A stretch of DNA of 64,000 nucleotides from an uncultured Eubacteriales bacterium. Lineage in GTDB: Bacteria > Bacillota > Clostridia > Oscillospirales > CAG-272. The position numbers and the translations under genes are program-made. The stretch spans positions 10,267 through 74,266 of the forward strand of contig CAKSVM010000003.1 of NCBI GenBank assembly GCA_934503195.1, given 5' to 3'. Of the stretch, positions 37,540 to 58,903 are shown piece by piece. Position 1 is the first letter of the stretch. The number at the start of each line of letters is the position of its first letter. The notes under the pieces were generated by a model. That model did no database searches, had not been told where the DNA came from, and saw nothing but the letters and a program-made list of their open reading frames with translations.

Positions 37540-38634
37540 TTATTTTTTATCCGTCCCGGTAAGCGCGGCTAGCTGTGAAAGTATGTCGCCCTGTCCCGAA
37601 AGCGTGATATTTCCGACCTGATCGCAGATTTTTCCGAGATATTCAAGCTCCTTCAGGCGATAAAGCGTTTTGTTTTCGTCCATGAGCTTGGCCGTGTTGA
37701 GCAGCGATCTGGTCGACGCGACTTCCTCGCGGCGCGTGATCACATTCGCCTGCGCGCGCTTTTCGGCGATCAAAACCGTGTTCATAATGTCGCGGATTTC
37801 ACCGGGAAGGATGATGTCCTTGACGCCGGAACCGGTGATTTCAACGAAAAGTCCGGCGGCCTTCTCCTTGAGTTTTTTTTCAATAACGTCAGAAAATTCC
37901 TGCTTGTTTTCAAGAATTTCGTCGAGAGTGTGCGAGCCGACATAGTCGCGCATCGCGAGCTGAGCCGATGTGTAGAGCTGGTTCACATAATCGCCGGCCT
38001 CGATGATCCGGTCAAAATCGACCACTTTGTCAAAGAAAACATAGCTGATTCGCAGACCGATTTTGTCAGATGTCAACAATTCTTGTCCAGAAATCGTGCG
38101 CATCGTTGGTGTGATATTGACAAAATCGCAGGTCACGCGCGCTGAATCGTTCCAGAAGAAATAACGTCCGGGTTCGAGTTTTCCGACAAATTTTCCATCA
38201 TAATAGAGCAGTCCGCGTTGAATCGCGTTGACCACAAATTCGCTGAAATATTCGCACGGAATCTGGTTTATCACCTTGAGCGCGTCGCCCGAAATGCGCG
38301 GCTCGGAAAGATCAATTATCTTGAACTTGTGCGCTCCGACCTTGAAATACGCATAATTTCCGGCACGCAGAACGCTGTCAAAATTGCCGTTGAGATAGTG
38401 CAGCGCGAGGCAGCCGTCCGGAACGGTGAGCGTGTTGACCGCGTCCGCAATCTCTTTTTTCGAAATCAAAATGTCGTACGGGCAGTGTGTGGAAACGAGC
38501 GGAGCGTTCAAACGGACAGCTTCGATTTCTGCCGAGCCGAAAGCAAGGTAGCTTCCGGGCATAAGAAGTCCATCGAATTTGCCGTTTTTGAAACGTAATC
38601 CGCGTTCGTTTTCGTTGATAATCACAGTTTTCAT
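37540..38634 (-). CDS. SPFH/Band-7 (slipin-like) protein without a TM anchor
   Basis: 364 aa. Two N-terminal ERG-x-GK-x-PG-Y modules (ERGLRFKNGKFDGLLMPGSY; QRGLLYYDGKFVGKLEPGRY), then an SPFH core and a coiled-coil tail (IAEKRAQANVITRREEVAS). GGGAGG RBS. Confidence 0.7.
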   Translation of the reverse strand: MKTVIINENERGLRFKNGKFDGLLMPGSYLAFGSAEIEAVRLNAPLVSTHCPYDILISKKEIADAVNTLTVPDGCLALHYLNGNFDSVLRAGNYAYFKVGAHKFKIIDLSEPRISGDALKVINQIPCEYFSEFVVNAIQRGLLYYDGKFVGKLEPGRYFFWNDSARVTCDFVNITPTMRTISGQELLTSDKIGLRISYVFFDKVVDFDRIIEAGDYVNQLYTSAQLAMRDYVGSHTLDEILENKQEFSDVIEKKLKEKAAGLFVEITGSGVKDIILPGEIRDIMNTVLIAEKRAQANVITRREEVASTRSLLNTAKLMDENKTLYRLKELEYLGKICDQVGNITLSGQGDILSQLAALTGTDKK

Positions 38635-38736
38635 CTATATAAACCTCCCTTTGGAAGAAAATTTCGAACGGATTTCCCTGCAAGAAAAGCGCGGCATGAG
38701 AATTGAGCGGCAGTATCGCCATGACGGACTCCGGCG

Positions 38737-38765
38737 AAAACGGCGAAAGCCGAAGCTTTACGCCG
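38737..38765 (-). terminator. Intrinsic terminator / attenuator 103 nt upstream of the SPFH start codon
   Basis: Minus strand: CGGCG-U-AAAGC-UUCG-GCUUU-CGCCG followed by UUUU. Confidence 0.6.
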
Positions 38766-39057
38766 TCCCCATCGCTGGTCAGGGTTCGCCGCCGCGGTAT
38801 CCTTCCCGTGCAAAGCACAGTTTTGCTGAGGCCGAAGCCACGCGGGAAATCCGACGCTGCGGTCGACTCTTTCGAATCGTCCAAATAAATCCATGTGCAG
38901 TCAAACTGCAAGCCAAACCACTGGCCATGCCGTTTTACAAAAGAAAAACCAGCATGGGCGGGATTCGAACCCGCGAAGTGTAACCGCCATCGACGCAATA
39001 CAGCAACGCCTGTTGCGGAATCGCGCGGCCTCTGAGAAGCGACGCGCCGACGATTAC
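38737..39057 (-). ncRNA. Candidate ~320-nt structured leader / ncRNA of unknown class (predicted TSS ~39057 to the intrinsic terminator at 38737-38765)
   Basis: No credible ORF. Consensus promoter at 39064-39092. GC-rich hairpins include two UUCG tetraloops, a tRNA-type T-arm (38958-38974) and a terminal stem plus U-tract. See findings. Confidence 0.45.
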
Positions 39058-39281
39058 GTTAAAATTATACCATAACTCCCACTTTCTTTCAAGTACTTAC
39101 GCGATTTTGTTAGAATATTGTTATGATCTGAGATTCGTTTGGCTATTGTGCAACGTGCGTTGTGCTATAGCTCATTTCATTGCAACATACGTTGCAATAT
39201 GTTACTAATTATCACGCTTAATTTTGCTTTTAAGTCTCCATGAAAAGTGGACAAAATTCCGATAGTGCAACACCAGTTGCG
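39002..39281. repeat. Cluster D of the palindrome (4 copies)
   Basis: 39002-39017 AGCAACGCCTGTTGCG (inside the candidate RNA); 39149-39164 TGCAACGTGCGTTGTG; 39181-39196 TGCAACATACGTTGCA; 39266-39281 TGCAACACCAGTTGCG. Confidence 0.8.
39064..39092 (-). promoter_or_regulatory. Promoter driving the candidate structured RNA / SPFH gene
   Basis: Minus strand: TTGAAA (39087-39092), 17 nt, TGgTATAAT (-10 at 39064-39069). Confidence 0.65.
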
Positions 39282-39282
39282 T

Positions 39283-39309
39283 AAAAAGCCGTCCTCACGG
39301 ACGGCTTTT
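39283..39309 (-). terminator. Intrinsic terminator after SBP paralog 6
   Basis: AGCCGTCC-tcac-GGACGGCT with T/A runs on both sides. Confidence 0.7.
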
Positions 39310-39321
39310 CGTATGGAATTT

Positions 39322-47269: not shown

Positions 47270-47344
47270 ATGAACAAACGAATCTTGAGTTCACTACTCG
47301 TATTCGCGATGCTCATCTCCGCGATGCCGATCCAGACTCTCGCC
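47270..47344 (+). other. Sec signal peptide of the giant protein
   Basis: MNKRILSSLLVFAMLISAMPIQTLA|YF: basic n-region, hydrophobic core and an A-x-A-like cleavage site. Confidence 0.7.
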
Positions 47345-50300
47345 TACTTCAGATACAAGGACGACGAGATCTTAAAGCATGCGGAAAGCTCGCTGGAGAT
47401 CCCGCTGAAGGACTCTGACGGAAAAGTTTCGACACTCAATTATGACGCCACGTGGGATGAAATCTACCCCTTCGGCGCGTTCGTCTTCGGAAACTTCGAG
47501 GCGGCGATAAACGAGGGCGCGTCTGACGGAAGCCAGACCGTCACGATCCCCGTCTACCGTCTCGGCGGCACGAAGGGCCGCGCCGAAGTCACCGTGAGAT
47601 TTGACCCCGCCGCGACGAAAACGGCCGCGGACGCCGACTCATATTCCTACGCCCTCTCGGGACGCGACGACATTACGATAGAATACGAAAATCCCCAGCC
47701 GATCGCGAAATATCAGCCGCTCGGAAAGGCACACGTATACGCCGGCTGCGGGATCCTCGATAAGGATGTGACCGACGACGAGGGTGAAGCGTTCGCCACG
47801 ATCTTCTCGCTTGACAACGTCAAGGCCGACTCGTTCAAATGGCAGTTCACCGAAATCGAGATTAATATGTCCGGAAACGACGATATTAAGGTCATCACCG
47901 ACTGGACAGATCTCGCCGACGCGCTGACCTCCGAAATCACGGTTAACAACACCGATATCGTCTATGATATAAACAAATCGGACGGCGTATATAAGATGCG
48001 CGACTTCCGCTGTGTCTACACGGTCGATGGCAAGACCTATTGCTCCGACACGTGGTATTTCGGCGAAAGGTATGTCGAGGAGGAAGAGGAAGTCCTCCCC
48101 GAAATGCCCGAAAAGACACCCGACGCGGAGGATCCGACCTATTCGACGCTTGAGATTGAGGAGGAATTCGGCTCGGCCGCGTTCACGCTCGTCTTCGCCG
48201 AGGATGAGTGGGTCAAGAACATCATCATCACCGCGAAGGATGACGAGATCGGCGAGCTTCCCGAACTCGGACTCTTCACGCTCTACGAAAACAACGGCGG
48301 AGCTATCTATCACGCCGCCTCCACCTTCACGCTTCTTGTGAACGACGACGATCCGCTCGGCGAGTCGGCGGTCGGATTTGAGACCGCGTCAATAGAGGCC
48401 GATCAGGACGCCGGAAGCGTCTCGGTAAAAATCGTCCGCACCGGAGACAATTCCTACCCGGTGAGCGTTGAATACTCGACCTCCGATCTCGACGCGGCGG
48501 CCGGAAAGCAGTACTCCCCCGTCTCGGGAACCCTGATGTTCGCCGGAGACATCAACGAGGCGACGGTCACAATTCCACTCATCAAGGAATCGGCGCGCGA
48601 GGATATCCTCTCGTTCGAGCTGACCCTCTCGGATCTCAAGGGCGGAAAAGGCTCGGCCGCGATTTCGTCCGGATCGATCCGGATCGACCTCACAAGCTCG
48701 GGCAGATCGCAGGGAATCACCGAGGGAACCAACCTCGCCACGATAATCGCCGGATCCGCCGGAGAGGACGTCTCGGGTAACGTCTTGACCGGAGACCCGC
48801 TCATCCCCGAGGCCGGAACCCACGACGGAATCCAGACCTCGTCCGACGATTCCCCCTCGCCCGCGAAATACAACGACAACAAGATCGTCACCCGCTCGCA
48901 CACCTATGAAAAGGGACTGATCTTCAGCCGCTCGGATTACAGCGACAGCACAAAATACTGGCGCGACTACGAGCTCGTCGTCGGCGCGGTCGGCGGAGAA
49001 TACGCCGCCCCGATGTCGCTCTTCACGGTATTCAAGGCACCGGCCTTCACCGAGAACAGCGGCGGTTATTCCGGAACCAAGGCGAACTTCTCGGCGACTC
49101 AGAGTTCGATCCTCCTCCAGCACAACCACAACACCGGCTTCACGTCGCTGGAAATCGCAAACGCCTCGCTCCTCTTCTCAGACATAAGCTGGAGATTCAG
49201 CTGGCCGACGATCGGCGTGGCTCAGGCAGGCCGCAAGGAGAAGGATTACCTCTATGTCATGCCCTTCGCGATGGTCTCCTACCCCAGTGCCACGAATCCG
49301 AACGGAGGCGTGAAGGACTGGAACGGCAACGCCGCGAATTTCTTCTCCGCGAAGACCCGCGACACCTCGTGGAGCGGAAGCGACAGCTTGGCGATGATCT
49401 ACGGACGCGGACTCGGCTTCTCGTTCGGACTCTCGCTCAACAAGAACGGCGGCCAGTACCCCACATGGCAGGAGAGCAGCAAGGGCCTTTCGGATAACGA
49501 TACCAAGAGCGGAACGAACGGAAGCTCGAAGGTCACGCTCGACAATCTCACCCTCAAGCGCAGATATTTCGGAAATTCTACGCTCGGCTTCACGATCCAC
49601 ACCGCCAACGACAAGGACATCGGAAATCCCGGCGATTACGCGATCTTTGACGAGGACTCGACCGTCTATCAGAGCATCCGCCCCGAGGTCACGATCGTCC
49701 CGAACGCGGGCGGCGTCACTTCAGGCGGACAGCTCTATGTCGGCTCGAAGCTCAAGGTCGATTTCAAGAACCTCGCCGACTACATAATCCCGCAGGACGG
49801 CTACATCACCGACTATATCTACCTCACAGACAACCACGGAGCGGTCTGCAAGCCGCAGATCGAACGCGCGAGCGACTCGACCTACTACGTCACCCTCCTC
49901 TGGAGCGGCATGAACGAGACCTCGCTCTCAAGCGACAGATCCTATACGCTCAACGTCGTCATGGAACGCCGTCAGGAGATCTTTATTGACGTCGGCCCCT
50001 CGGTCGTCGGAAACGACAATGGCGCGATTTCGACCGCGTGGGATAAGTTCCTCTTCGAGGGCGAGGGCGGAAGCATCAATCTGAGATACGCAAAGTTCGG
50101 TTACAACACGACAACGACCAGATCCGACAGCCCCAAGCATTTCAAACAGAGTTCCGGCACCGCGACCTATAATTACGACCTCGTCGGAAACACCACGGCA
50201 AGCCGTTCCCTGAAGCTCTCGCGCAACTCCGGAAAAGACTCCACGTTCAGCAATCTTCAATATATAAACCTCGGTCAGGACCCTGACGACGTGATCCTCT

Positions 50301-53300
50301 TCAACGGCCGCTCGTATAAGGGCAACGAGAACATCTACCTCACTCAGGCCGACCTCGCGCAGTCGAAGCTCGTCTTCTATTTCTACGACTCGACCTGTCT
50401 CTCGAACCAGACCGATATGTCGATAACGATCTCCGACACCTATCTCTACTTCGACGTCAACGGAAACGGCGTCATTGACGGATATTTCGACGAGGAAACC
50501 GGATACTTCGTCCTCGACAAGGACGAGAACGGAAACGAAATCGACCTCAATCTCGGCATAATCTCGGGAAGCTTCGACGAAAAGACCTTCCAGCCGATCG
50601 TCGACAAGGACGGCGGCGTGCATCAGTATTTCTTCAAGGTTATCTACAAGACCTCGCCGCGCTCGCTGAAAGCCCCGGTCGGAGCGTCTGACACCGACAC
50701 GCTCAGAATCCTTCCCTTCTTCGCCTCGACCGTCACCGACGGCGGACGCTATTCGACGCTGACAAAGGAACAGCTCTCCTATCGCTACGTCGCCGCGGGC
50801 TATATGCGTACCGACAAGAACGGAACCGCCTACTACGATTCCTCCGACGGACACCCGATGTACGGTGAGGCCGCGACGAAGACCTCAATGATCGACATTC
50901 CGCTCGGCGGCGACGTCAGCCCCGTCTACAAGGAATACGACAAAACCCAGAACAAATGGCTTTGGCACTGGACCCCGAACTTCTGGGGACAGCTACTCTT
51001 CCCGTATGAAAATCCCGCTCCGATCTCGCACGATATGAACATGACCGGAGAAGCGGTCGCGATCGCCGGCGAGGAACCCACGTGGGATATCGTCGAGAAA
51101 AAGCGCGTCCAGAAGCTCAGCCCGGACGGCGCGGCGAGAGTCAACGGATATCTCGGCTCGCTCACCGGAAACAACACCTTCGGACTCGCCGTGACCGAGG
51201 AACCCTATGTCACCGAAAACGGCACGCGCGTCAAGAAAAAGCTCTCGTCGCTCGACGATATCGCGCATGACAGCCTCGCTCTGGGTGAGGTCAGCGCGAT
51301 CCCGAACGCCGATTATCTCACGCTCTCGAACGGCTCGGGCGATGCCGGAGATTCCGAGGGTGACGCGGCCGGAGCGGGTTCGATGCCCGAATTCGAGGCC
51401 GACCTCGGAATCTCGCTCCCCTCGACCGAATTCGGTCTCTCGGATTACGCGAAGATTATAATGGACGGCAACTCGGTCGGCTTCTCGATCGGAATCCCGC
51501 TCCTCAAGATGGAAAAGGAATTCCCCGGCGACAACAGCAACGCACAGCAGGGTCAGACAACTCCGACTCCCGGCGATCAGACCCAGCCGAACCCCGGTCA
51601 GGGCGGTCAGGGTTCGACGAATCCCCCGGCCTCCGGCTCGACCACTCCCGGACAGACCACAACCGCTCCGGCGACCCCCGCCACCGGAAACCCCAATCAG
51701 AACAGCGGCGGCGCGTCGGGTGCGACCCCGTCAACTCCCGGCACGACTCAGAATCCCACTCCTCCGTCCTCGACGACCGGATCGTGGACTCCCGCGCGTC
51801 CGAACGTGCCAACAACCACCGCTCCGAACTCCGGAACCCCCGCTTCCTCCGGCGGACAGTCGGGAAATCAGGGCGGACAGTCGGGACAGTCCGGAAATAA
51901 CGGAAGCCGCACCGGCGGAAGTGCTTCAGCTTCTCCCTCCTCCACCTCCACTGAACCCGCGACCACGTCTCTCAGCAAGTCCTTCAAGGACGCGAACGAG
52001 TCGATGGAAATGCTGAGGAAATTCGTCTCGACAAGAGGACAGAGCCTCAGCGAGGAACTCACGAAACAGCGCAACGAGGCAAAGGGCATGGGCGGCGTAA
52101 AGTCGAAGAAGGCCGAGGCTTCCTTCTCGGTCGCGCTCGTCATCATGTTCGAGTACAACCCGCTCGACAACGGATACTACTTCAAGACCGCGACAGTCGC
52201 GGCGGCGGTGTCCTTCGAGTTCACGCTCCAGTACCGCTTCACCTTCTTCCCGCTCCTTTACATCTACTTAAAGACCGGATTCGAGATCAAAATCTCGACC
52301 GGACTCGGCGTTGACCGCGTCGGCGTAGAGGGCAATGACGCGAAGGCGGTAAGCGCGTCGGCCTTCTCGGGCGTCGGACTTGAAGTCAAGGAAATCGGCG
52401 AGACCAAGCTCAAAAAAGGTCAGGCCTACATACTCGACACGACGCTCTCGACAAACAGCGAAAACAAAGTCACCGGACTCCACCTTTATATGGATGGAAG
52501 CTTCTATATGGAGGTTCTCGAGGGCGAAGGCGCCGACACCGAAGCCTCTCTCGCCCAAAAGGTTGACAGCTACGTAAAGGATCCGAAAGCATACAAGGAA
52601 GCTAACGGGGACGATTATTTCAGCTCCGGACGACTCAAATCGAACGGCGAGGATCCCGTCGAGGTCTACTTCAAGAAGCACGACGGACGCGTCATCGTCA
52701 TACTCACCGCGCTTGAGGAAGAGGCGCGAATCACCTCGGCCAAGGAAGTCACCGGCGCGAAGAGCGTCGTCTACTGGCAGGGAATCAAGATCGAACCGTC
52801 CGGCTTCATCGAGGTCGGCGCGGGAATCGGAATCGACCTCCTTAAGTTCGAGCTTTATCTCAAAGCGACGCTCGGACTCGGATTCAGCTTCGGCGCGTAC
52901 AATACCGATAAACAGGCATATGAGCCGGCGTCGTTTGACAGCTTCGCGCTCAGCGCGGCGATCGGATTCAGAGTGACGGTTCTCTTCTTCAACTACTCGA
53001 TGGATCTCCTCGGCTACTACCTCACGTACAATAAGGGCGAGGGCTGGACAAGCCAGTTCGCCGCGCTCAACGGCGCGGTCCCGCTGAACGGATCGAGAAG
53101 CGGAGCGTCCGATTCGTCCTATGTCCATGTCACCGGACCCGAAAACAACTGGTACGACGTCAGGGTCGACGGCGAAACCCCGATGACCCGCGCGTATGAC
53201 CCGACCGACAAGAACGCCCGCTTCCAGATCTCGGGCTACGGCACGAGCGGAGACGGATTCAGACTCATAGACGGTCTCTCCTCCGGATACACCTACAAGG

Positions 53301-56300
53301 TCTTCACGGTAAACGGCGACAGCTATCTTCTCTACACAAGGCCGAAAGCGGACGCGACGGGCGTCGACATCCCAGAGCTTGTGCTGAGTAAGGTCGTTGT
53401 CACCGGAGACAGCCAGACCAGACTCGTGAACCCGCTTGACAAGGACGAAACCGCGCTCGTCGTCGACGGCGACGGAACCGGAGATCTCGACTTCACCGCG
53501 GCGGTAAACGGCTCGACCGTCACCGTCACATGGGTAAGCTACAAGACCGCGGCAGGAGAATCCACGACCGACGTCGGAACCGCGTCGAAGAACACGGTCA
53601 TAAAGACCGCTACGCTTGACCTCTCGGAAGACACGACCGCGACCGGATTCGAAAACAAGACCGTGATCTCGGCGGCCAATAATCTCTTCACCTTCCTCCC
53701 GAGCCAGACCAAAAACGCGTCTGTCTGGGCGGAGACCGTCTCGACGGCAAATGTCGAGACTATGAAGACAAACCTCAACAAGTATCTCACCTCGGTAAAC
53801 AACCTCGTCGACGCGGAAAATGAGAAAGTCACCGACATAACGAAAGCCGACGGAACCAATCCCGCGAACGCCACCGCGATTTACAGATGGAACTATCAGA
53901 CCGCGCTCGACGAACTCTACGGCGACGGCTCAAAGCTTGTTCTCCGCTATGACGGCACGATCTACGATTACGCGAAGCTCTTGAATGACGAACGCGTCGA
54001 AAACATCGAAACGCACGAGACCGACGACGCGGTGATCATCGCCTTCACGACCTCCACGTCGACCTACATCGATAATGAAGGAAACGCCGCCGAGATCGGC
54101 GAGACCACCGATCTTGCGAATGTCAAGCGTCTCTATCTCATGAAGTTCAACAAGACCACAAAGTCGTTTGAGACTCCGAAGCTTCTCCGCACCGTGATCG
54201 ACTTTGACAAATGCACCTCGTCGAATATAAACCCGAAGGCGAACTCCGGAATCACTCCCGCGAAGTTCAAGGACGGCGTATATTCGCTCAGTGCGCTCGA
54301 AACCGAGTCGGTTGACCCGTACATCTCGAATCTCAGATTCACCGACGCGAAGTTCACGATTAACGCGTCCGAAACTCTCTTCACCTTCGAGATGAACGGC
54401 AACACCTACGTCATCACTGAGGAAGACACCGCGAATATCCTCGCCGGAAGCTCCGCGAAAGTCACACCGATCTTCGCGAAGGGCGTCGCCGACACCGGAA
54501 CAGACGTCGTTATCGGCTCCGACAACGAGGGCAACCTCGCGATCGTCTACTCCGCTCCGGTCTCCGGAACGACCAACAACGCGCTCTTCATCGCGTGGTG
54601 GGACGTAAACGTGAACGGCTGGGGCAGCCCGAACATCCTCGCGATGAATCATCTTCAGGTGAAGGAAGACGCCGAAAAGTATCACCTAAGCGACGAGCAG
54701 ATCGAAAAGGCCTACCTCGGCGAACGCACCGGAAACGAAGAGTACGACGCGCATATCGAGTCCCTCGCGTCAGATTCCACCGCAAAGGGCGATTACGATC
54801 AGTTCACCTTCTCAAACCTCAACATGACCCTTATCAAGGTTCCGGTCGAGGTCGACGGTGCCACCACCGAGAAGGATCAGCTCATCGTCTTCTCCGAGGG
54901 CATTTATCAGAGACTTGCGGGCGGATCGTTCGAAGTGAACGGAACAACTCAGGAAACCATCATCCCGCTCGCCGCGTCCTCGCCCGAGGCTGCCGAGCTG
55001 AACAGATCGAAGACCGGATTCTACGCGGTATCATTCGGCGCGGGCAAGCAGGGCGTCGGACTCACGAGCCTTTCGTTCATCGACAACCGCTTCACCGCCG
55101 GAACGAAGCTCTCGGGTAAGCTCGGCTTCACCAACACCGGAACGATCGCGATCAGAGCGAGCGACGGCAACCCCGCGACCGTCACTCTCAAAGCGACAAA
55201 ACAAAGCGGCGAGATTCAGAACATAGCCGTCTGGAAACTCACCGAAAATATCCGCTCGGGCGAAAATGTTTTACTCGACTTCACGATGAACACTCCGCTC
55301 ACAAGCGATCTTCCGAACGGCACGATCTTCACCGCTACAATCGCGGAGGATAAGGATTACATTGAGAAGTCTGGCGGAACCGCGCTCAATGTGACGACTC
55401 CCGCGCTCCTCACGGTCGCCGACAAGCCCGAACTCGGAATCGAGTCGCTCACGGTCGAGCCGGTAAGAGCGGACGAAAACGTCACGACAGAAGTCGAATT
55501 CGTCATCTCGAACCGCGGAAGCAAGTCGGCCGAAAACGTCTACGTCCAGTTCTCCTACGAGTCGGGACACGACAAAAACGGCGCGCCGGTCTACTCTCCG
55601 CTCGACATCAGTAAGAACACCCTCAAGGTTGGAGAACAGCAGCAGATCCCGAGTCTCACCCGCTCGGTGACCGGAAACGACTTCGGAAACGGAATCATCC
55701 ACCTCGGATTACTCGACCCGGCTTACCAGCGCACGGTCTCCGGAACGATTGACATACCGAAATCGGCGTTTGCCGACGACTCGCTGAAGCTCCATGTCGA
55801 GGTCTTCTCCGAAACCAGCGACGTGTCGTACATCGAAGACTTCTACAAATCGACCCACTCCGACGAGTACTCCTCGATCAACAACGTCCGCACGCTTTCG
55901 GTAAATCACAAGACCTTCTTCTCGGCTCCCGAAAAGATCACGATCGCGCTCGGAAACACTCTGAAACTCCCGATCTCCTTCATGACGACCGCCATGACCT
56001 CCGACATAACCGTCCGCGAGATCACCGACGGCACCGAAAACTGGACTCGAAAGCTCGGAATCCTCTACTATGACAGCGCGACGCAGTGCGTCGTCGCCGC
56101 TCCGAACGAAACCGGAAGCGGAATCATTCAGCTTCAGGACAGCAAGACGAACACCTTCTACGCGATCGCGTTCAGAGCGACCGAACTCGGCTCGGGAATC
56201 AACATCTTCAGGGATGACGAGAGCTTCGAGTTCGCCGGCGACTGGAGCTTCGTCGAAGACAGCATGGGCTGGGCAGGCGAGGAAAACGCCGAGTTCGTCC

Positions 56301-58903
56301 CGCCGATGAACAACGATCTCGTCAAGGCGAACGACGGCGCGTCGGTAAGCTTCAGAACGCTCGCTGACACGATTAAGCTCCGATTTGTCGGAAAGGTGAC
56401 GATCAACTCGGATCTCCCCGGATTCACCGCGGTCACGGCCGATTCGTCCGAACTGCGCGCGGTCGGAAAGTATCCGCTCGTCGTCGACTTCAATAACCCC
56501 GACGGCAAGACCCACAACGTGACGATCACCGTCACCAAGGGAACCGAACTCGACCGCTACGAGGCGACCTACGGCGAATACGTCGATCCGACTCCTCCCG
56601 TCTCCGGAGAGCCTGAGATCATATGGAGCCGCAGCTTCCCCGAAACCGCGTCGATTGAGGTGAAGGAAGGCGAAACTCCCGAAAAGGTTGAACTCATTGC
56701 CTATGTCAGCGACGACAACGGAATTCTCGACGTCGGACTGAGATCCGATTCGGGCAAAGCGGTCATCGGAACCATCGCGAAGGTCTCCGAAAAGCTCTGG
56801 CTCGTCCCCGTGACTGTCTCGGGCAACGGATCCTTCACCCTCACCGCGAAGAATCTCTCGGGCGTCGATTCAAAGTCGAACGTCAACGCCTACTGGTACA
56901 ACGAAACCGTCACCACCGGCGCGAAGTCGACCGCTCCGGATTTCGGCCCGGATAACGTCTCCTTCGTGAAGTCGAACGGAAAACCGATCACCGAAATTCT
57001 CCCGAGAAGCGAGAAAGCCTTTATAAATGTCGATTACAAGCTCAAGGAAGGCGAAAAGCTCACTGTCAACGGCACGGAAATGACCGGAACCCGCTATGAG
57101 GTCACGGCGAACGGATTCTACACCGTCCGCGTCACCGCTGAGGACGGCACATGGAGTCAGGTGGTCATGTACATGGATAAGCTCGAAAACGGCGACATCA
57201 TGGCCTCCGCGTCGGTCGATCCGAAGAAAAAGCTCATCACGGTCACGGTCGACGCGAAGCGTCCCGACGACATCTCGGTCACCGCGTCCGGACCCGACGG
57301 AAAAGTAACCTTCACGAAGACCTCCGACGGAATCTACACCTACAGCTACAAGAAGAGCGGCGATTACACGATCACAATCACCGACAAAATGGCGACCGAA
57401 ACCCTTAAGGTCACGATCCCGAAGACGGTCGAAAAGCTCGAAGTCATCACCGCTCTGAAGACAACCTACAGCATGGGCGATCCCTTTGACATCACCGGAC
57501 TCACTCTTAAGGCGACCTACTCCGACGAAAGCGAGGTCACTCTCGACGACACGTCGAAGATGAAAGTCAAGGGCTTCGACTCCTCGAAGAAGCAGACGCT
57601 GAGCCTTTCGATAAGCTATGAGGCGATTGACGCGGCGGCGACGCTTGAAGTCACGATCCTCTTCGCCGGAAAGGTCACTCTCCTTGACGTGAACGACGAC
57701 GCTTACGGCGAAGGATTCTACACCGAGGGCAAGACGGTAAGTGTCTTCCCCGGCACGCGCGACGGCTACGCGTTCGTCGGCTGGTCGACCGAAAATCTCA
57801 AACTCAGCGACAACATGGCTTCCTCCTTCACGATGCCCGACAACTCTAAGCTCGACGAGTCCGAGATAATCCTCGTGGCAAACTGGAAGAAGCTCTCGAC
57901 CGTCACTATCATAAACGGCGCGAAGAACGCTTCCGGAGCTGGTATCTACAAGGAAGGCGACGAAGTGACGATCTGGGCGGGCAAGGACAGCCGGACCTTC
58001 CTCCTCTGGAGATCGAATGACATTGAGATTCCCGAGGGAACCGGCGATCGGTTCACCTTCACGATGCCGAAGCACAACGTCACCTTCACCGCGGTCTGGC
58101 TCGGACTCCTCCCGAGTCTCCGCACGGTCAGATTCGAGACGAACGGCGGAAGCACGATCCGCGACCTCTCCGCGCACGACGGACAGAAGATCGACCTCTC
58201 GTTCTACGTCCCGACAAAGGAAGGCTATGAGTTCACCGGATGGTTCACCGACAGCTCGCTCACAAACAGGATCGAAACCCTCACGGTAAAGGGCGACATT
58301 GTCCTCTTCGCGGGCTGGAAGCAGACCGGATCTGAGCCGGTCGAGCCGATCACCCTTCCCTTTGACGACGTTAAGCCGGGCGACTGGTTCTATGACGACG
58401 TTTACTACGTCTACGTCAAGGGCATGATGAACGGAACGAGCGCGACAACCTTCTCGCCTGAGCTTGAAACCTCGCGCGCGATGATCGTCACGATCCTCCA
58501 TCGTCTCGAGGGCAGACCCGAGCCGGAAGGCGGATCGACCTTCACCGACGTCGAGTCTGGCAGCTGGTACGAAAAGGCGGTCACATGGGCGGCCGAAAAC
58601 GGAATCGTCAACGGCTACGGCGAAGGAATCTTCGGCCCGTCCGACCCCGTAACCCGCGAGCAGCTCGCCGCGATCCTTTACCGCTACTCGAACTTCAAGG
58701 GAATCGACACGACGGTTGAGGCCGAGGAAATTCTGAAGAACTTCACCGACGCGCACGAGATCAGCTCCTACGCGCTTGACCCGATGAAGTGGGCGGTTGA
58801 CCGCGGACTTATAAACGGAATGACGACGACCACGCTCGCTCCGACCTCCACCGCGCTCCGCAGTCAGGCGGCCGCGATCTTCCACAGATTCTGCGAGAAC
58901 TGA
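47270..58903 (+). CDS. Giant (3,877 aa) secreted, SLH-anchored multidomain cell-surface protein
   Basis: A single uninterrupted ORF with a GGAGG RBS. Signal peptide, Calx-beta-like, CARDB-like and Ig-like domains, Listeria-Bacteroides repeats and three C-terminal SLH repeats. Confidence 0.9.
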   Translation: MNKRILSSLLVFAMLISAMPIQTLAYFRYKDDEILKHAESSLEIPLKDSDGKVSTLNYDATWDEIYPFGAFVFGNFEAAINEGASDGSQTVTIPVYRLGGTKGRAEVTVRFDPAATKTAADADSYSYALSGRDDITIEYENPQPIAKYQPLGKAHVYAGCGILDKDVTDDEGEAFATIFSLDNVKADSFKWQFTEIEINMSGNDDIKVITDWTDLADALTSEITVNNTDIVYDINKSDGVYKMRDFRCVYTVDGKTYCSDTWYFGERYVEEEEEVLPEMPEKTPDAEDPTYSTLEIEEEFGSAAFTLVFAEDEWVKNIIITAKDDEIGELPELGLFTLYENNGGAIYHAASTFTLLVNDDDPLGESAVGFETASIEADQDAGSVSVKIVRTGDNSYPVSVEYSTSDLDAAAGKQYSPVSGTLMFAGDINEATVTIPLIKESAREDILSFELTLSDLKGGKGSAAISSGSIRIDLTSSGRSQGITEGTNLATIIAGSAGEDVSGNVLTGDPLIPEAGTHDGIQTSSDDSPSPAKYNDNKIVTRSHTYEKGLIFSRSDYSDSTKYWRDYELVVGAVGGEYAAPMSLFTVFKAPAFTENSGGYSGTKANFSATQSSILLQHNHNTGFTSLEIANASLLFSDISWRFSWPTIGVAQAGRKEKDYLYVMPFAMVSYPSATNPNGGVKDWNGNAANFFSAKTRDTSWSGSDSLAMIYGRGLGFSFGLSLNKNGGQYPTWQESSKGLSDNDTKSGTNGSSKVTLDNLTLKRRYFGNSTLGFTIHTANDKDIGNPGDYAIFDEDSTVYQSIRPEVTIVPNAGGVTSGGQLYVGSKLKVDFKNLADYIIPQDGYITDYIYLTDNHGAVCKPQIERASDSTYYVTLLWSGMNETSLSSDRSYTLNVVMERRQEIFIDVGPSVVGNDNGAISTAWDKFLFEGEGGSINLRYAKFGYNTTTTRSDSPKHFKQSSGTATYNYDLVGNTTASRSLKLSRNSGKDSTFSNLQYINLGQDPDDVILFNGRSYKGNENIYLTQADLAQSKLVFYFYDSTCLSNQTDMSITISDTYLYFDVNGNGVIDGYFDEETGYFVLDKDENGNEIDLNLGIISGSFDEKTFQPIVDKDGGVHQYFFKVIYKTSPRSLKAPVGASDTDTLRILPFFASTVTDGGRYSTLTKEQLSYRYVAAGYMRTDKNGTAYYDSSDGHPMYGEAATKTSMIDIPLGGDVSPVYKEYDKTQNKWLWHWTPNFWGQLLFPYENPAPISHDMNMTGEAVAIAGEEPTWDIVEKKRVQKLSPDGAARVNGYLGSLTGNNTFGLAVTEEPYVTENGTRVKKKLSSLDDIAHDSLALGEVSAIPNADYLTLSNGSGDAGDSEGDAAGAGSMPEFEADLGISLPSTEFGLSDYAKIIMDGNSVGFSIGIPLLKMEKEFPGDNSNAQQGQTTPTPGDQTQPNPGQGGQGSTNPPASGSTTPGQTTTAPATPATGNPNQNSGGASGATPSTPGTTQNPTPPSSTTGSWTPARPNVPTTTAPNSGTPASSGGQSGNQGGQSGQSGNNGSRTGGSASASPSSTSTEPATTSLSKSFKDANESMEMLRKFVSTRGQSLSEELTKQRNEAKGMGGVKSKKAEASFSVALVIMFEYNPLDNGYYFKTATVAAAVSFEFTLQYRFTFFPLLYIYLKTGFEIKISTGLGVDRVGVEGNDAKAVSASAFSGVGLEVKEIGETKLKKGQAYILDTTLSTNSENKVTGLHLYMDGSFYMEVLEGEGADTEASLAQKVDSYVKDPKAYKEANGDDYFSSGRLKSNGEDPVEVYFKKHDGRVIVILTALEEEARITSAKEVTGAKSVVYWQGIKIEPSGFIEVGAGIGIDLLKFELYLKATLGLGFSFGAYNTDKQAYEPASFDSFALSAAIGFRVTVLFFNYSMDLLGYYLTYNKGEGWTSQFAALNGAVPLNGSRSGASDSSYVHVTGPENNWYDVRVDGETPMTRAYDPTDKNARFQISGYGTSGDGFRLIDGLSSGYTYKVFTVNGDSYLLYTRPKADATGVDIPELVLSKVVVTGDSQTRLVNPLDKDETALVVDGDGTGDLDFTAAVNGSTVTVTWVSYKTAAGESTTDVGTASKNTVIKTATLDLSEDTTATGFENKTVISAANNLFTFLPSQTKNASVWAETVSTANVETMKTNLNKYLTSVNNLVDAENEKVTDITKADGTNPANATAIYRWNYQTALDELYGDGSKLVLRYDGTIYDYAKLLNDERVENIETHETDDAVIIAFTTSTSTYIDNEGNAAEIGETTDLANVKRLYLMKFNKTTKSFETPKLLRTVIDFDKCTSSNINPKANSGITPAKFKDGVYSLSALETESVDPYISNLRFTDAKFTINASETLFTFEMNGNTYVITEEDTANILAGSSAKVTPIFAKGVADTGTDVVIGSDNEGNLAIVYSAPVSGTTNNALFIAWWDVNVNGWGSPNILAMNHLQVKEDAEKYHLSDEQIEKAYLGERTGNEEYDAHIESLASDSTAKGDYDQFTFSNLNMTLIKVPVEVDGATTEKDQLIVFSEGIYQRLAGGSFEVNGTTQETIIPLAASSPEAAELNRSKTGFYAVSFGAGKQGVGLTSLSFIDNRFTAGTKLSGKLGFTNTGTIAIRASDGNPATVTLKATKQSGEIQNIAVWKLTENIRSGENVLLDFTMNTPLTSDLPNGTIFTATIAEDKDYIEKSGGTALNVTTPALLTVADKPELGIESLTVEPVRADENVTTEVEFVISNRGSKSAENVYVQFSYESGHDKNGAPVYSPLDISKNTLKVGEQQQIPSLTRSVTGNDFGNGIIHLGLLDPAYQRTVSGTIDIPKSAFADDSLKLHVEVFSETSDVSYIEDFYKSTHSDEYSSINNVRTLSVNHKTFFSAPEKITIALGNTLKLPISFMTTAMTSDITVREITDGTENWTRKLGILYYDSATQCVVAAPNETGSGIIQLQDSKTNTFYAIAFRATELGSGINIFRDDESFEFAGDWSFVEDSMGWAGEENAEFVPPMNNDLVKANDGASVSFRTLADTIKLRFVGKVTINSDLPGFTAVTADSSELRAVGKYPLVVDFNNPDGKTHNVTITVTKGTELDRYEATYGEYVDPTPPVSGEPEIIWSRSFPETASIEVKEGETPEKVELIAYVSDDNGILDVGLRSDSGKAVIGTIAKVSEKLWLVPVTVSGNGSFTLTAKNLSGVDSKSNVNAYWYNETVTTGAKSTAPDFGPDNVSFVKSNGKPITEILPRSEKAFINVDYKLKEGEKLTVNGTEMTGTRYEVTANGFYTVRVTAEDGTWSQVVMYMDKLENGDIMASASVDPKKKLITVTVDAKRPDDISVTASGPDGKVTFTKTSDGIYTYSYKKSGDYTITITDKMATETLKVTIPKTVEKLEVITALKTTYSMGDPFDITGLTLKATYSDESEVTLDDTSKMKVKGFDSSKKQTLSLSISYEAIDAAATLEVTILFAGKVTLLDVNDDAYGEGFYTEGKTVSVFPGTRDGYAFVGWSTENLKLSDNMASSFTMPDNSKLDESEIILVANWKKLSTVTIINGAKNASGAGIYKEGDEVTIWAGKDSRTFLLWRSNDIEIPEGTGDRFTFTMPKHNVTFTAVWLGLLPSLRTVRFETNGGSTIRDLSAHDGQKIDLSFYVPTKEGYEFTGWFTDSSLTNRIETLTVKGDIVLFAGWKQTGSEPVEPITLPFDDVKPGDWFYDDVYYVYVKGMMNGTSATTFSPELETSRAMIVTILHRLEGRPEPEGGSTFTDVESGSWYEKAVTWAAENGIVNGYGEGIFGPSDPVTREQLAAILYRYSNFKGIDTTVEAEEILKNFTDAHEISSYALDPMKWAVDRGLINGMTTTTLAPTSTALRSQAAAIFHRFCEN
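48362..48646 (+). other. Calx-beta-like domain
   Basis: ESAVGFETASIEADQDAGSVSVKIVRTGDNSYPVSVEYSTSD..GTLMFAGDINEATVTIPLI. A weaker copy lies near aa 69-113. Confidence 0.6.
51527..51969 (+). other. Low-complexity P/T/G/Q/S/N-rich linker (~148 aa)
   Basis: GDNSNAQQGQTTPTPGDQTQPNPGQGGQGSTNPPASGSTTPGQTTTAPATPATGNP...SSTSTEPATTS. Confidence 0.9.
52118..53056 (+). other. Amphipathic beta-hairpin-rich, Gly/aromatic-rich module of unknown fold
   Basis: Alternating hydrophobic/polar runs: FEFTLQYRFTF, LYIYLKTGFEIKISTGLG, FELYLKATLGLGFSFGAY, AIGFRVTVLFFNYSMDLLGYYLTYN. Confidence 0.4.
55427..55700 (+). other. CARDB-like domain
   Basis: PELGIESLTVEPVRADENVTTEVEFVISNRGSKSAENVYVQFSYE. A second, similar segment lies just upstream (LTSLSFIDNRFTAGTKLSGKLGFTNTGTIAI). 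Confidence 0.5.
57427..57660 (+). other. Bacterial Ig-like (Big_3-type) domain
   Basis: VEKLEVITALKTTYSMGDPFDITGLTLKATYSDESEVTLDDTSKMKVKGFDSSKKQTLSLSISYE. Confidence 0.55.
57667..58320 (+). other. Three Listeria-Bacteroides (Flg_new) repeats
   Basis: GYAFVGWSTE...LVANWK; TFLLWRSND...FTAVW; GYEFTGWFTDSSL...LFAGWK. Confidence 0.7.
58361..58900 (+). other. Three S-layer homology (SLH) repeats
   Basis: FDDVKPGDWFYDDVYYVYVKGMMNGTS..; FTDVESGSWYEKAVTWAAENGIVNGYG..TREQLAAILYRY; FTDAHEISSYALDPMKWAVDRGLINGM. Confidence 0.85.

Follow-up and report, generated by a model that had tools for sequence, protein, structure and literature searches.

A predicted ~415-nt structured RNA with tRNA-like features upstream of an SPFH/Band-7 gene of an uncultured Eubacteriales bacterium

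What is encoded in a long intergenic gap in which no credible gene can be recognized? The question is raised by contig CAKSVM010000003.1 (assembly GCA_934503195.1) of an uncultured Eubacteriales bacterium, of which a stretch of 64,000 nucleotides (nt), called the window hereafter, was analysed. The gene of an SPFH/Band-7 protein is separated from its upstream neighbour by a gap of 687 nt (38635-39321), which is the largest gene-free stretch of the window, the runner-up being 418 nt. A preliminary description of this DNA had already singled out the gap as the largest one and proposed that it encodes an ornate, non-coding structured RNA tied to the SPFH gene, and the homologue collection, the covariation and the genomic linkage reported here all agree with that proposal. 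As judged from the sequence, the gap encodes a real, strongly conserved, promoter-driven and non-coding structured RNA of ~415 nt. This RNA is probably one half of a conserved two-part module composed of a structured RNA and a cytosolic SPFH/Band-7 protein, in which the RNA would be the co-transcribed cognate partner of the protein, of the type called band 7-associated tRNA, or b7a-tRNA.

Conservation, linkage and overall structure of the RNA

The loci of 80 SPFH relatives were compared, which are 44-65% identical and nearly all come from metagenome-assembled genomes of Oscillospirales or other Clostridia. The motif GGTTCGAATCC (at most 2 mismatches) was found 240-470 nt upstream of the start codon in about 70 of the 80 loci, and GGATACCG (at most 1 mismatch) stood 121-145 nt before the start codon in 53. 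Most of the gap was aligned by nhmmer to three of these loci (L001-L003). The closest relatives, obtained by protein search and contig look-ups, are L161, whose SPFH protein is 84% identical, and L162-L165; a metagenome scan for closer SPFH relatives returned no relative that exceeded 52% identity along the full length, and at E <= 1e-60 there were more than 4,000 SPFH relatives. The linkage was also read in the reverse direction, with an exact DNA pattern, GGTTCGAATCC-N15-45-CCAGYGGTTTGG, that was derived solely from the RNA; run against 185,579 species genomes, it matched 66 loci. A downstream SPFH gene in the same orientation was present in 50 of the 65 new ones, while 9 others were truncated at the border of the retrieved locus; the SPFH start usually lies 270-370 nt from the pattern start, and 750-970 nt from it in five loci. 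The six pattern matches outside Firmicutes had neither an SPFH gene nor the acceptor-like hairpin described below and served as a built-in negative control. Other flanking genes were not common beyond the closest relatives in the 80 loci, and therefore the conserved unit is the RNA together with SPFH. In the window the RNA (39058-38644) and the SPFH reading frame (from 38634) have the same orientation, an arrangement repeated in more than 100 loci.

Two covariance models built without the window recognized its RNA. R1, which covers the T-arm, the adjoining hairpin and the D-like module, was made from 46 sequences with the window and its clade excluded, and R2, which covers the 3' domain in 144 positions, was made from 22 family members outside the window clade. 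R1 matched 38911-38977(-) with 51.6 bits (E = 3.7e-15) as the only significant match in the 64 kb, and R2 matched 38643-38823(-) with 45.1 bits (E = 2.5e-9) over all 144 positions as a single match, both E-values being rough because the models were quickly calibrated.

The near-perfect minus-strand promoter recognized earlier is borne out by the comparison, as its TTG and TATAAT are invariant across all nine aligned relatives. Transcription is predicted to start near 39058, and the first helix of the RNA begins at 39057. The promoter scan gave no second promoter-like site between the RNA and SPFH, in line with what had been seen by eye. The 336 nt downstream of the promoter fold with -142.5 kcal/mol (z = -3.0 against shuffled sequences), so the dense self-complementarity noticed before has a statistical counterpart. 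The RNA of the window clade was aligned from the predicted start to the ATG (alignment A1, seven distinct sequences), and its structure was predicted by RNAalifold (Table 1). The 97 predicted pairs were paired in 89.6% of cells as compared to 78.1% in shuffled alignments and at most 45.5% when partners were slid, and changes on both sides occurred in 54 pairs as compared to 31 in shuffles; the slid controls are the fairer comparison because sequence relatedness inflates the shuffle controls.

The 5' domain of the window clade has no 7-nt anticodon-like loop, and it may not be homologous to that of the other family members, which carries GGUGC-NNN...N'N'N'-GUAUGCC and an anticodon-like arm. Two local helices of the preliminary description do not appear in the consensus. 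In place of a GCAAC-N4-GUUGC hairpin at 39002-39017, CGCAA pairs with the downstream UUGCG in helix P3 in all seven clade sequences, and the strands of a supposed CCCG...CGGG three-way junction at 38805-38846 pair over a long range with 38702-38668. Both could be alternative folds.

Table 1. Features of the SPFH locus (window positions; A5 is an alignment of relatives)
Feature	Position	Strand	Remarks
Sigma-70-type promoter TTGAAA-17-TGgTATAAT	39064-39092	-	11/12 consensus positions and extended -10 TG
5' domain, three-way junction P1/P2/P3	38980-39057	-	RNAalifold, 7 relatives; specific to window clade
P1	39057-39049 with 38988-38980	-	compensatory change in 3/9 pairs
P2	39047-39037 with 39031-39023	-	compensatory change in 5/9 pairs
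P3	39020-39010 with 39001-38989	-	compensatory change in 7/10 pairs
T-arm, 5-bp stem GCGGG/CCCGC and 7-nt loop UUCGAAU	38958-38974	-	part of R1 match
Capped acceptor-like 7-bp hairpin CCAUGCU/GGCAUGG	38925-38957	-	adjoins T-arm directly
D-arm-like hairpin CCAG-UGGU-UUGG	38913-38924	-	loop GG invariant; stem covaries
Short hairpin UGCAGU-UUG-ACUGCA, 3-nt loop	38896-38910	-	at place of anticodon stem; different hairpin here in every clade member
GAAA-loop hairpin, variable linker	38861-38882	-	L161 has CGUCC-GAAA-GGACG at equivalent site; length varies in other relatives
3' domain, long irregular rod	38668-38854	-	closing helix 38854-38844 with 38678-38668
GGAUACCG box	38795-38802	-	invariant columns in A5; <=1 mismatch, 121-145 nt before start codon in 53/80 relatives
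Supposed terminator, hairpin GGCGUAAAGC-UUCG-GCUUUCGCC (38764-38742) then GUUUU	38737-38765	-	apical expansion of conserved GCCARAG...YUUUCCGC hairpin
CUCAAU box, facing GGAUACCG in internal loop	38702-38707	-	unpaired in both consensus structures
GCCGC box	38691-38695	-	with the GGAUACCG/CUCAAU internal loop
CUUCC (anti-Shine-Dalgarno)/GGAGG (Shine-Dalgarno) hairpin	38644-38657	-	helix 16, paired in 85.7% of cells, 7 relatives
SPFH/Band-7 ('slipin') gene, 364 amino acids (aa)	37540-38634	-	Pfam Band_7, E = 5e-26

The RNA was not assigned to a known family. Rfam 15 at gathering score matched no family in the whole window, and at E <= 10 the gap gave nothing but an 18-nt local match of the tmRNA model (model positions 346-363) on the T-arm. 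At gathering score 20 relatives yielded nothing except one tRNA call, and ARAGORN, whose scan covers permuted tmRNA, found no tRNA and no tmRNA in the window. ROOL, GOLLD, raiA, OLE, HEARO, T-box and the other large RNAs and riboswitches of Rfam 15 gave no covariance-model match at gathering score in the window or in the 20 relatives, and no relevant one at E <= 10 in the gap. The earlier judgement that the RNA is not a T-box, tmRNA, RNase P or signal recognition particle RNA is thus upheld by the Rfam search at gathering score, and for the suggested kinship with ROOL, GOLLD or raiA no similarity was found in the same sequences.

The gap might be thought to code for a protein, and its candidate would be an open reading frame (ORF) of 87 codons (38894-38631, minus strand), which is present; its stop codon and the start codon of SPFH share the sequence ATGA, an overlap that looks like translational coupling. 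Compared with L161, its peptide has matches scattered over three different frames, and no stop-free frame of L161 extends to the SPFH start. The frame is therefore broken in the closest relative, long stop-free stretches arise in all frames of this GC-rich sequence, and none of the gap ORFs has a Pfam match. The coding explanation was dropped because the frame is not kept in the closest relative, and its probability is negligible; the ORFs of the gap, which are not conserved, are as implausible as first described.

Several elements were observed in the DNA upstream of the RNA. A palindromic box of 15 nt, TGCAAC-N3-GTTGC(A), occurs three times upstream of the RNA promoter (39149-39163, 39181-39195 and 39266-39280), and these copies look like operator sites for a putative dimeric regulator, which could substitute in the window clade for the missing WYL proteins described below. 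Most clade members have a conserved motif rich in A, (T)AACAAAAYC, at ~10 nt upstream of the -35 element (window 39095-39110; L001, L003, L161, L162 and L164), which could be a UP element or a regulator site. In seven more distant loci (L013, L017, L021, L030, L044, L056 and L064), the stretch from the WYL genes to the RNA promoter contains, ~60-110 nt upstream of the RNA, a terminator-like hairpin followed by a near-identical AGTTCGCARCTTTTTTTCCGTGAWAAA, and this DNA-level conservation in distant genomes is unusually strong for a terminator.

The tRNA-like module

Between the 5' and the 3' domain lies a module with tRNA features (Table 1), whose T-arm has exactly the sequence that had been pointed out before. 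Matches of R1 were aligned (alignment A3, 66 distinct sequences, 15 modelled pairs), and 93.4% of cells were paired as compared to 70.8% in shuffled alignments and at most 45% with partners slid, while the cells changed on both sides numbered 210 as compared to 61 in shuffles. Pairing of the T-stem reached 99.7% of cells, and exchanges of the kinds CG/UA/AU and GC/AU occurred in it. In the acceptor-like hairpin each of the seven pairs covaries in the 66 distinct sequences, and five of the seven are compensatory within the window clade. The D-like stem shows the exchanges CCA/UGG, CCAA/UUGG, CCC/GGG and CCU/AGG around the constant loop GG. At the position of the short hairpin, most other family members have GCCG-GAAA-CGGC. 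The helix order of T-arm, capped acceptor-like stem, D-like hairpin and short stem would correspond to a cloverleaf opened at the variable loop, that is, to a circular permutation, and the GG of the D-like loop is predicted to touch the T-loop and so form the tRNA 'elbow'.

The resemblance to tRNA in the window consists of the T-arm, the 7-bp acceptor-like stem, the D-like hairpin and their permuted order, which the tRNA finders did not call, and the RNA falls outside tRNA and tmRNA proper, its acceptor-like stem being capped instead of built from the 5' and 3' ends of the RNA. In the relatives, the Rfam tRNA model scored 41 bits in L044, and ARAGORN called an odd 80-nt 'tRNA-Lys' with its anticodon at position 39 in five loci. 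Both results arise because an upstream box, GYGUAUGCC, is read as the 5' acceptor strand, and the 'tRNA-Lys' calls are regarded as a mis-parse of two adjacent hairpins. A normal cloverleaf with this box as the 5' acceptor strand was tried and rejected: the box is invariant and is therefore not the covarying partner of the strand after the T-arm, which varies freely and pairs downstream.

These calls, together with the perfect T-arm and the local match to the Rfam tmRNA model, are also what would be expected if the gap held the decayed gene of a tRNA or tmRNA, or if a mobile element had left there the tRNA-derived half of its integrase attachment site. Yet ARAGORN and Rfam are negative in the window, the strand 3' of the T-arm pairs downstream and not upstream in a pairing that covaries, and more than 100 loci with otherwise different neighbours have the element at a fixed position before SPFH. 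Such a remnant is highly improbable, and the attachment site in particular was rejected on the basis of synteny.

In relatives linked to the RNA ligase gene rtcB, which are described below, the GYGUAUGCC box and the main T-arm are separated by one or two additional arms (L021, L022, L025, L029, L074 and many others). These arms are either a second T-arm-like hairpin, GRGG-UUCAAAU-CCYC, or a hairpin with a 7-nt anticodon-like loop; among 84 distinct sequences the loops were CUGUCAA (10), CUUUUAA (10), CUGUAAA (9), CUUGAAA (4) and CUGUUAA (4). The window RNA has no anticodon-like arm. The spacing of the module is also variable in places: in L009, L043, L050, L167, L186, L198 and L211 (in L011, L031 and L067 within the 3' part), the distance from the T-arm to SPFH is ~890-970 nt and not ~310 nt, or the 3' region is longer by 100-170 nt, which would imply insertions between or inside the RNA domains. 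R1 also gave weak extra matches (~25 bits) on the opposite strand downstream of RtcB, one in L004 (5077-5124, -) and one in L082 (6014-6059, -); in the former, which ARAGORN did not call, a T-arm, CAUCUCC, GCCA and a terminator follow one another as at the 3' end of tmRNA genes.

The 3' domain and the ribosome-binding site

The 3' domain is a long irregular rod that contains a UUCG hairpin (38828-38841) and nested helices formed by 38826-38774 with 38729-38680, and helices 7-15 of this rod include 29 pairs with compensatory change. The GGC-UUCG-GCC hairpin of the preliminary description belongs to a conserved helix, 38841-38837 with 38832-38828, and three of the five pairs of this helix show compensatory change.

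The same description had ended the RNA at a hairpin with a U-tract, 38737-38765, and had left the choice between a cis-acting leader and an independent, terminator-capped RNA. The stem and the four U do exist, but the terminator scan did not call this hairpin. In the R2 alignment it falls inside a 46-nt insertion where relatives have ~10 nt. L161 keeps the covarying hairpin, but CGAUGCCC replaces the U-tract, and no terminator-like site was found at a consistent position in 68 distinct leaders. The partner strands of the sequence 5' of the hairpin lie 3' of it, in 38729-38680, and they covary. The hairpin is thus best taken as a lineage-specific apical expansion and not as the end of the RNA. 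An independent small RNA of ~320 nt, starting near 39057 and ending at this hairpin, with SPFH expressed separately, would account for the strong promoter and for a GC-rich UUCG hairpin followed by GUUUU. It would leave the covarying strands beyond the apical insertion without explanation, and against it stand also the tract of just four U with its negative scan, the loss of the tract in the closest relative, the lack of a promoter between hairpin and SPFH and the lack of a terminator at a consistent position in the 68 relatives; we consider it very unlikely.

Conservation continues up to the Shine-Dalgarno sequence, where CUUCC and GGAGG form a hairpin 10 nt before the SPFH start codon. Since there is no conserved terminator, no promoter before SPFH, and an RNA conserved to the ribosome-binding site, a leader of ~415 nt without a conserved terminator before the SPFH reading frame is the parsimonious reading, which is also favoured over a separate gene by the fixed spacing to the start codon and by the lack of a conserved ORF. 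The leader is thus the better of the two options first offered, and the length of the RNA would be ~390-415 nt instead of ~320 nt.

The SPFH protein, its neighbours and the possible role of the RNA

The AlphaFold2 model of the SPFH protein (mean pLDDT 80.8, pTM 0.53) contains three N-terminal five-strand beta repeats (2-41, 66-108 and 130-173), the SPFH domain and a helix of ~60 residues; unlike classical stomatins, it has no N-terminal membrane hairpin or anchor. Stomatin, HflK/C, erlin and prohibitin took the top ranks in a Foldseek search against the PDB, with alignments of ~225-283 columns. The entries of major vault protein (E ~4e-10 to 5e-8) gave the longest alignments, 407-437 columns, and this length means that the beta repeats are also covered; among the Foldseek matches, major vault protein is the only one aligned over residues 1-175. 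The model thus suggests an architecture like that of major vault protein, which is no proof of a cage. Longer SPFH relatives of 496-637 aa were also observed (P0008, P0009, P0028 and P0057).

ORF clustering of the 80 loci showed a protein of ~402 aa after SPFH in 52 and proteins of ~303 and ~412 aa before the RNA in 49 and 48, respectively. The former is RtcB according to Pfam (E = 1.9e-58) and the latter two are WYL/WCX-domain proteins, so that the canonical locus, seen in most Clostridia, is WYL-WYL / RNA / SPFH / RtcB. Only relatives with this RtcB linkage went into the models R1 and R2 that recognized the window RNA. Neither an RtcB homologue (tblastn) nor a WYL homologue was found in the 64 kb of the window, and the closest relatives L161-L165 are likewise without RtcB or WYL, with ApbE or MatE after SPFH in L163 and L164. 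The genes after SPFH in the window encode ApbE, NusG_II and a heptaprenyl diphosphate synthase component (Pfam). The 485-aa protein upstream of the gap has no Pfam family, and PADLOC returned no defence-system match for this protein or for SPFH. Elsewhere in the window, a single ORF of 3,877 codons occupies 47270-58903 (+).

Burroughs and Aravind reportedly predicted a 'band 7-associated tRNA' in RtcB RNA-repair operons in 2016 (Nucleic Acids Res). We know of no experimental validation of the b7a-tRNA system to date. In the literature search, this comparative-genomics prediction was the sole prior mention found, and no relevant SPFH-linked riboswitch or tRNA-like RNA of Clostridia turned up. 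A b7a-tRNA adjoining Band-7 and RtcB genes is described in a preprint (bioRxiv 10.1101/312249), and an SPFH gene embedded in a Pseudomonas rtc locus was described in 2026 (PMC13086221). Judged by the preprint and by locus architecture, the relatives of the window RNA match the b7a-tRNA system, and the RNA is not as unprecedented as it had first seemed. The window RNA would be a divergent, reduced, stand-alone copy of a b7a-tRNA-type RNA, without RtcB, WYL and the anticodon-like arm.

We infer that the most likely mechanism combines a cognate RNA partner, a tRNA-shaped surface and coupling to translation. The strong sigma-70 promoter would start the RNA near 39058, and transcription would run on into the SPFH reading frame. 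The RNA would then fold into the clade-specific 5' three-way junction, the permuted tRNA mimic and the long 3' rod with the invariant GGAUACC/CUCAAU internal loop; in the mimic, the T-arm would stack on the capped acceptor-like stem, and the D-like GG could dock on the T-loop. Made in cis with the SPFH protein, the RNA may serve as its cognate partner, and the tRNA-shaped surface may scaffold or bait tRNA-recognising factors within an oligomeric SPFH assembly resembling major vault protein. The fold of the 3' rod and the anti-Shine-Dalgarno hairpin may gate SPFH translation.

A more far-reaching version is a vault-like ribonucleoprotein, in which a cytosolic SPFH protein, as a miniature major vault protein with beta repeats, an SPFH 'shoulder' and a long helix resembling a cap, assembles with or around its own 400-nt leader, and the permuted tRNA mimic is a bait or sensor for tRNA-directed enzymes (anticodon nucleases in the RtcB-linked relatives). 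Anticodon nucleases of the colicin E5 and PrrC types attack GUN and UUU anticodons. The GUN and UUU found in the anticodon-like loops of RtcB-linked relatives make a bait or sensor role attractive, and for the anticodon-like arm this role is speculation; as a whole we hold the vault-like particle to be unlikely. If it were true, the window would show the RNA-SPFH pair functioning as a unit without RtcB.

Some of the same features would also fit a purely cis-regulatory sensor, akin to a riboswitch or T-box, in which the ligand of the leader is a small compound, a molecule related to tRNA or a protein, for instance SPFH, the anti-Shine-Dalgarno hairpin switches SPFH translation, and the RNA has no role in trans. 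The spacing of the GGAUACCG box to the start codon is fixed, the invariant loop GGAUACC/CUYAAG between covarying helices resembles a binding pocket, the CUUCC/GGAGG hairpin is conserved at the ribosome-binding site, and local hairpins such as GCAAA..UUUGC compete with the long-range pairings, a hint of alternative folds. However, no known riboswitch, aptamer and platform taken together, comes near the ~415 nt of this RNA with its full tRNA-shaped module, a terminator/antiterminator pair is lacking, and the anti-Shine-Dalgarno hairpin is not evident in most other family members. The linkage to one protein family and to RtcB/WYL resembles Y RNA-Rsr-RtcB, where the RNA is a protein partner. We regard a sensor acting in cis only as possible, though on balance rather doubtful, and the cognate partner of SPFH as the preferred reading.

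Several points weigh against the preferred reading and should be kept in mind. The structures scored in A1 and A3 were derived from or fitted to the alignments that were later used to score them. The grounds for the elbow contact and the permuted tRNA fold are only the order of the helices, the lengths of the stems and the invariant bases. The anti-Shine-Dalgarno hairpin is clear in the window clade and not evident in most of the rest of the family, and on sequence grounds a cis-acting leader cannot be separated from a processed trans-acting RNA. The likeness to major vault protein derives from one AlphaFold2 model (pTM 0.53) and Foldseek alignment lengths. An RNA-repair role in the window is extrapolated, since the window has neither RtcB nor WYL, and the identity with the b7a-tRNA of 2016 was judged by a secondary description and by the architecture of the locus.

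The family is widespread in gut and rumen Clostridia, with well over 100 loci collected here. It is large, it gives one of the stronger covariation signals obtainable by hand, it has no Rfam model, and two seed alignments are supplied for it as a new RNA family. As compared to the 2016 prediction, as far as could be judged, the new elements are the permuted tRNA mimic embedded in a ~415-nt leader with conserved 5' and 3' domains, the extension of the leader to the ribosome-binding site and the persistence of the RNA-SPFH pair without RtcB and the WYL regulators. A vague association is thereby turned into testable hypotheses, namely binding of the RNA to an SPFH oligomer, its cleavage and ligation, and the gating of translation.

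Known systems share parts of this picture. T-box leaders are likewise long structured 5' leaders of Firmicutes concerned with tRNA, but they bind tRNA and do not resemble it, and the window RNA has no specifier, T-box sequence, terminator/antiterminator or T-box match in Rfam at E <= 10. The tRNA-like domain of tmRNA, the viral 3' tRNA-like structures and the permuted tRNA genes of Cyanidioschyzon merolae have tRNA mimicry in common with the window RNA; the T-arm sequence is identical to the tRNA/tmRNA consensus, and the helices of the window RNA follow the cloverleaf order in circular permutation, as in the permuted genes. Unlike these mimics, the window RNA has no free acceptor end, no CCA and no tag ORF, and ARAGORN is negative. 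In vaults, as here, a dedicated small structured RNA goes with a protein in which beta repeats at the N terminus precede an SPFH-like domain and a long helix, and the cage-forming major vault protein has nine such repeats versus three in the model of the window protein. Vault RNAs are polymerase III products of ~100 nt and not tRNA mimics, and the likeness of the two pairs is one of analogy only. YrlA and Rsr (Ro60) of the rsr-yrlBA-rtcBA operons likewise combine a non-coding RNA with a tRNA-like domain, a neighbouring gene for the partner protein and RtcB. The tRNA-like domain of YrlA is held by a T-loop/D-loop contact, and the RNA is proposed to be a cofactor or tether. The Rsr partner is a TROVE ring and not SPFH, YrlA has no sequence or Rfam similarity to the window RNA, and it is ~100 nt long and intergenic whereas the window RNA is a long leader that reaches the ribosome-binding site. 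As far as its secondary description tells, the RNA of the b7a-tRNA system would differ from that of the window, which is ~415 nt long with large 5' and 3' domains, permuted helices and a capped acceptor stem, and which has no RtcB or WYL nearby, no tRNA-finder call and no 7-nt anticodon-like loop. On the other hand, according to that description, the b7a-tRNA is like the window RNA non-coding, has tRNA features and lies next to a Band-7/SPFH gene, and the window RNA is homologous to the RNA located between the WYL genes and SPFH-RtcB in most relatives.

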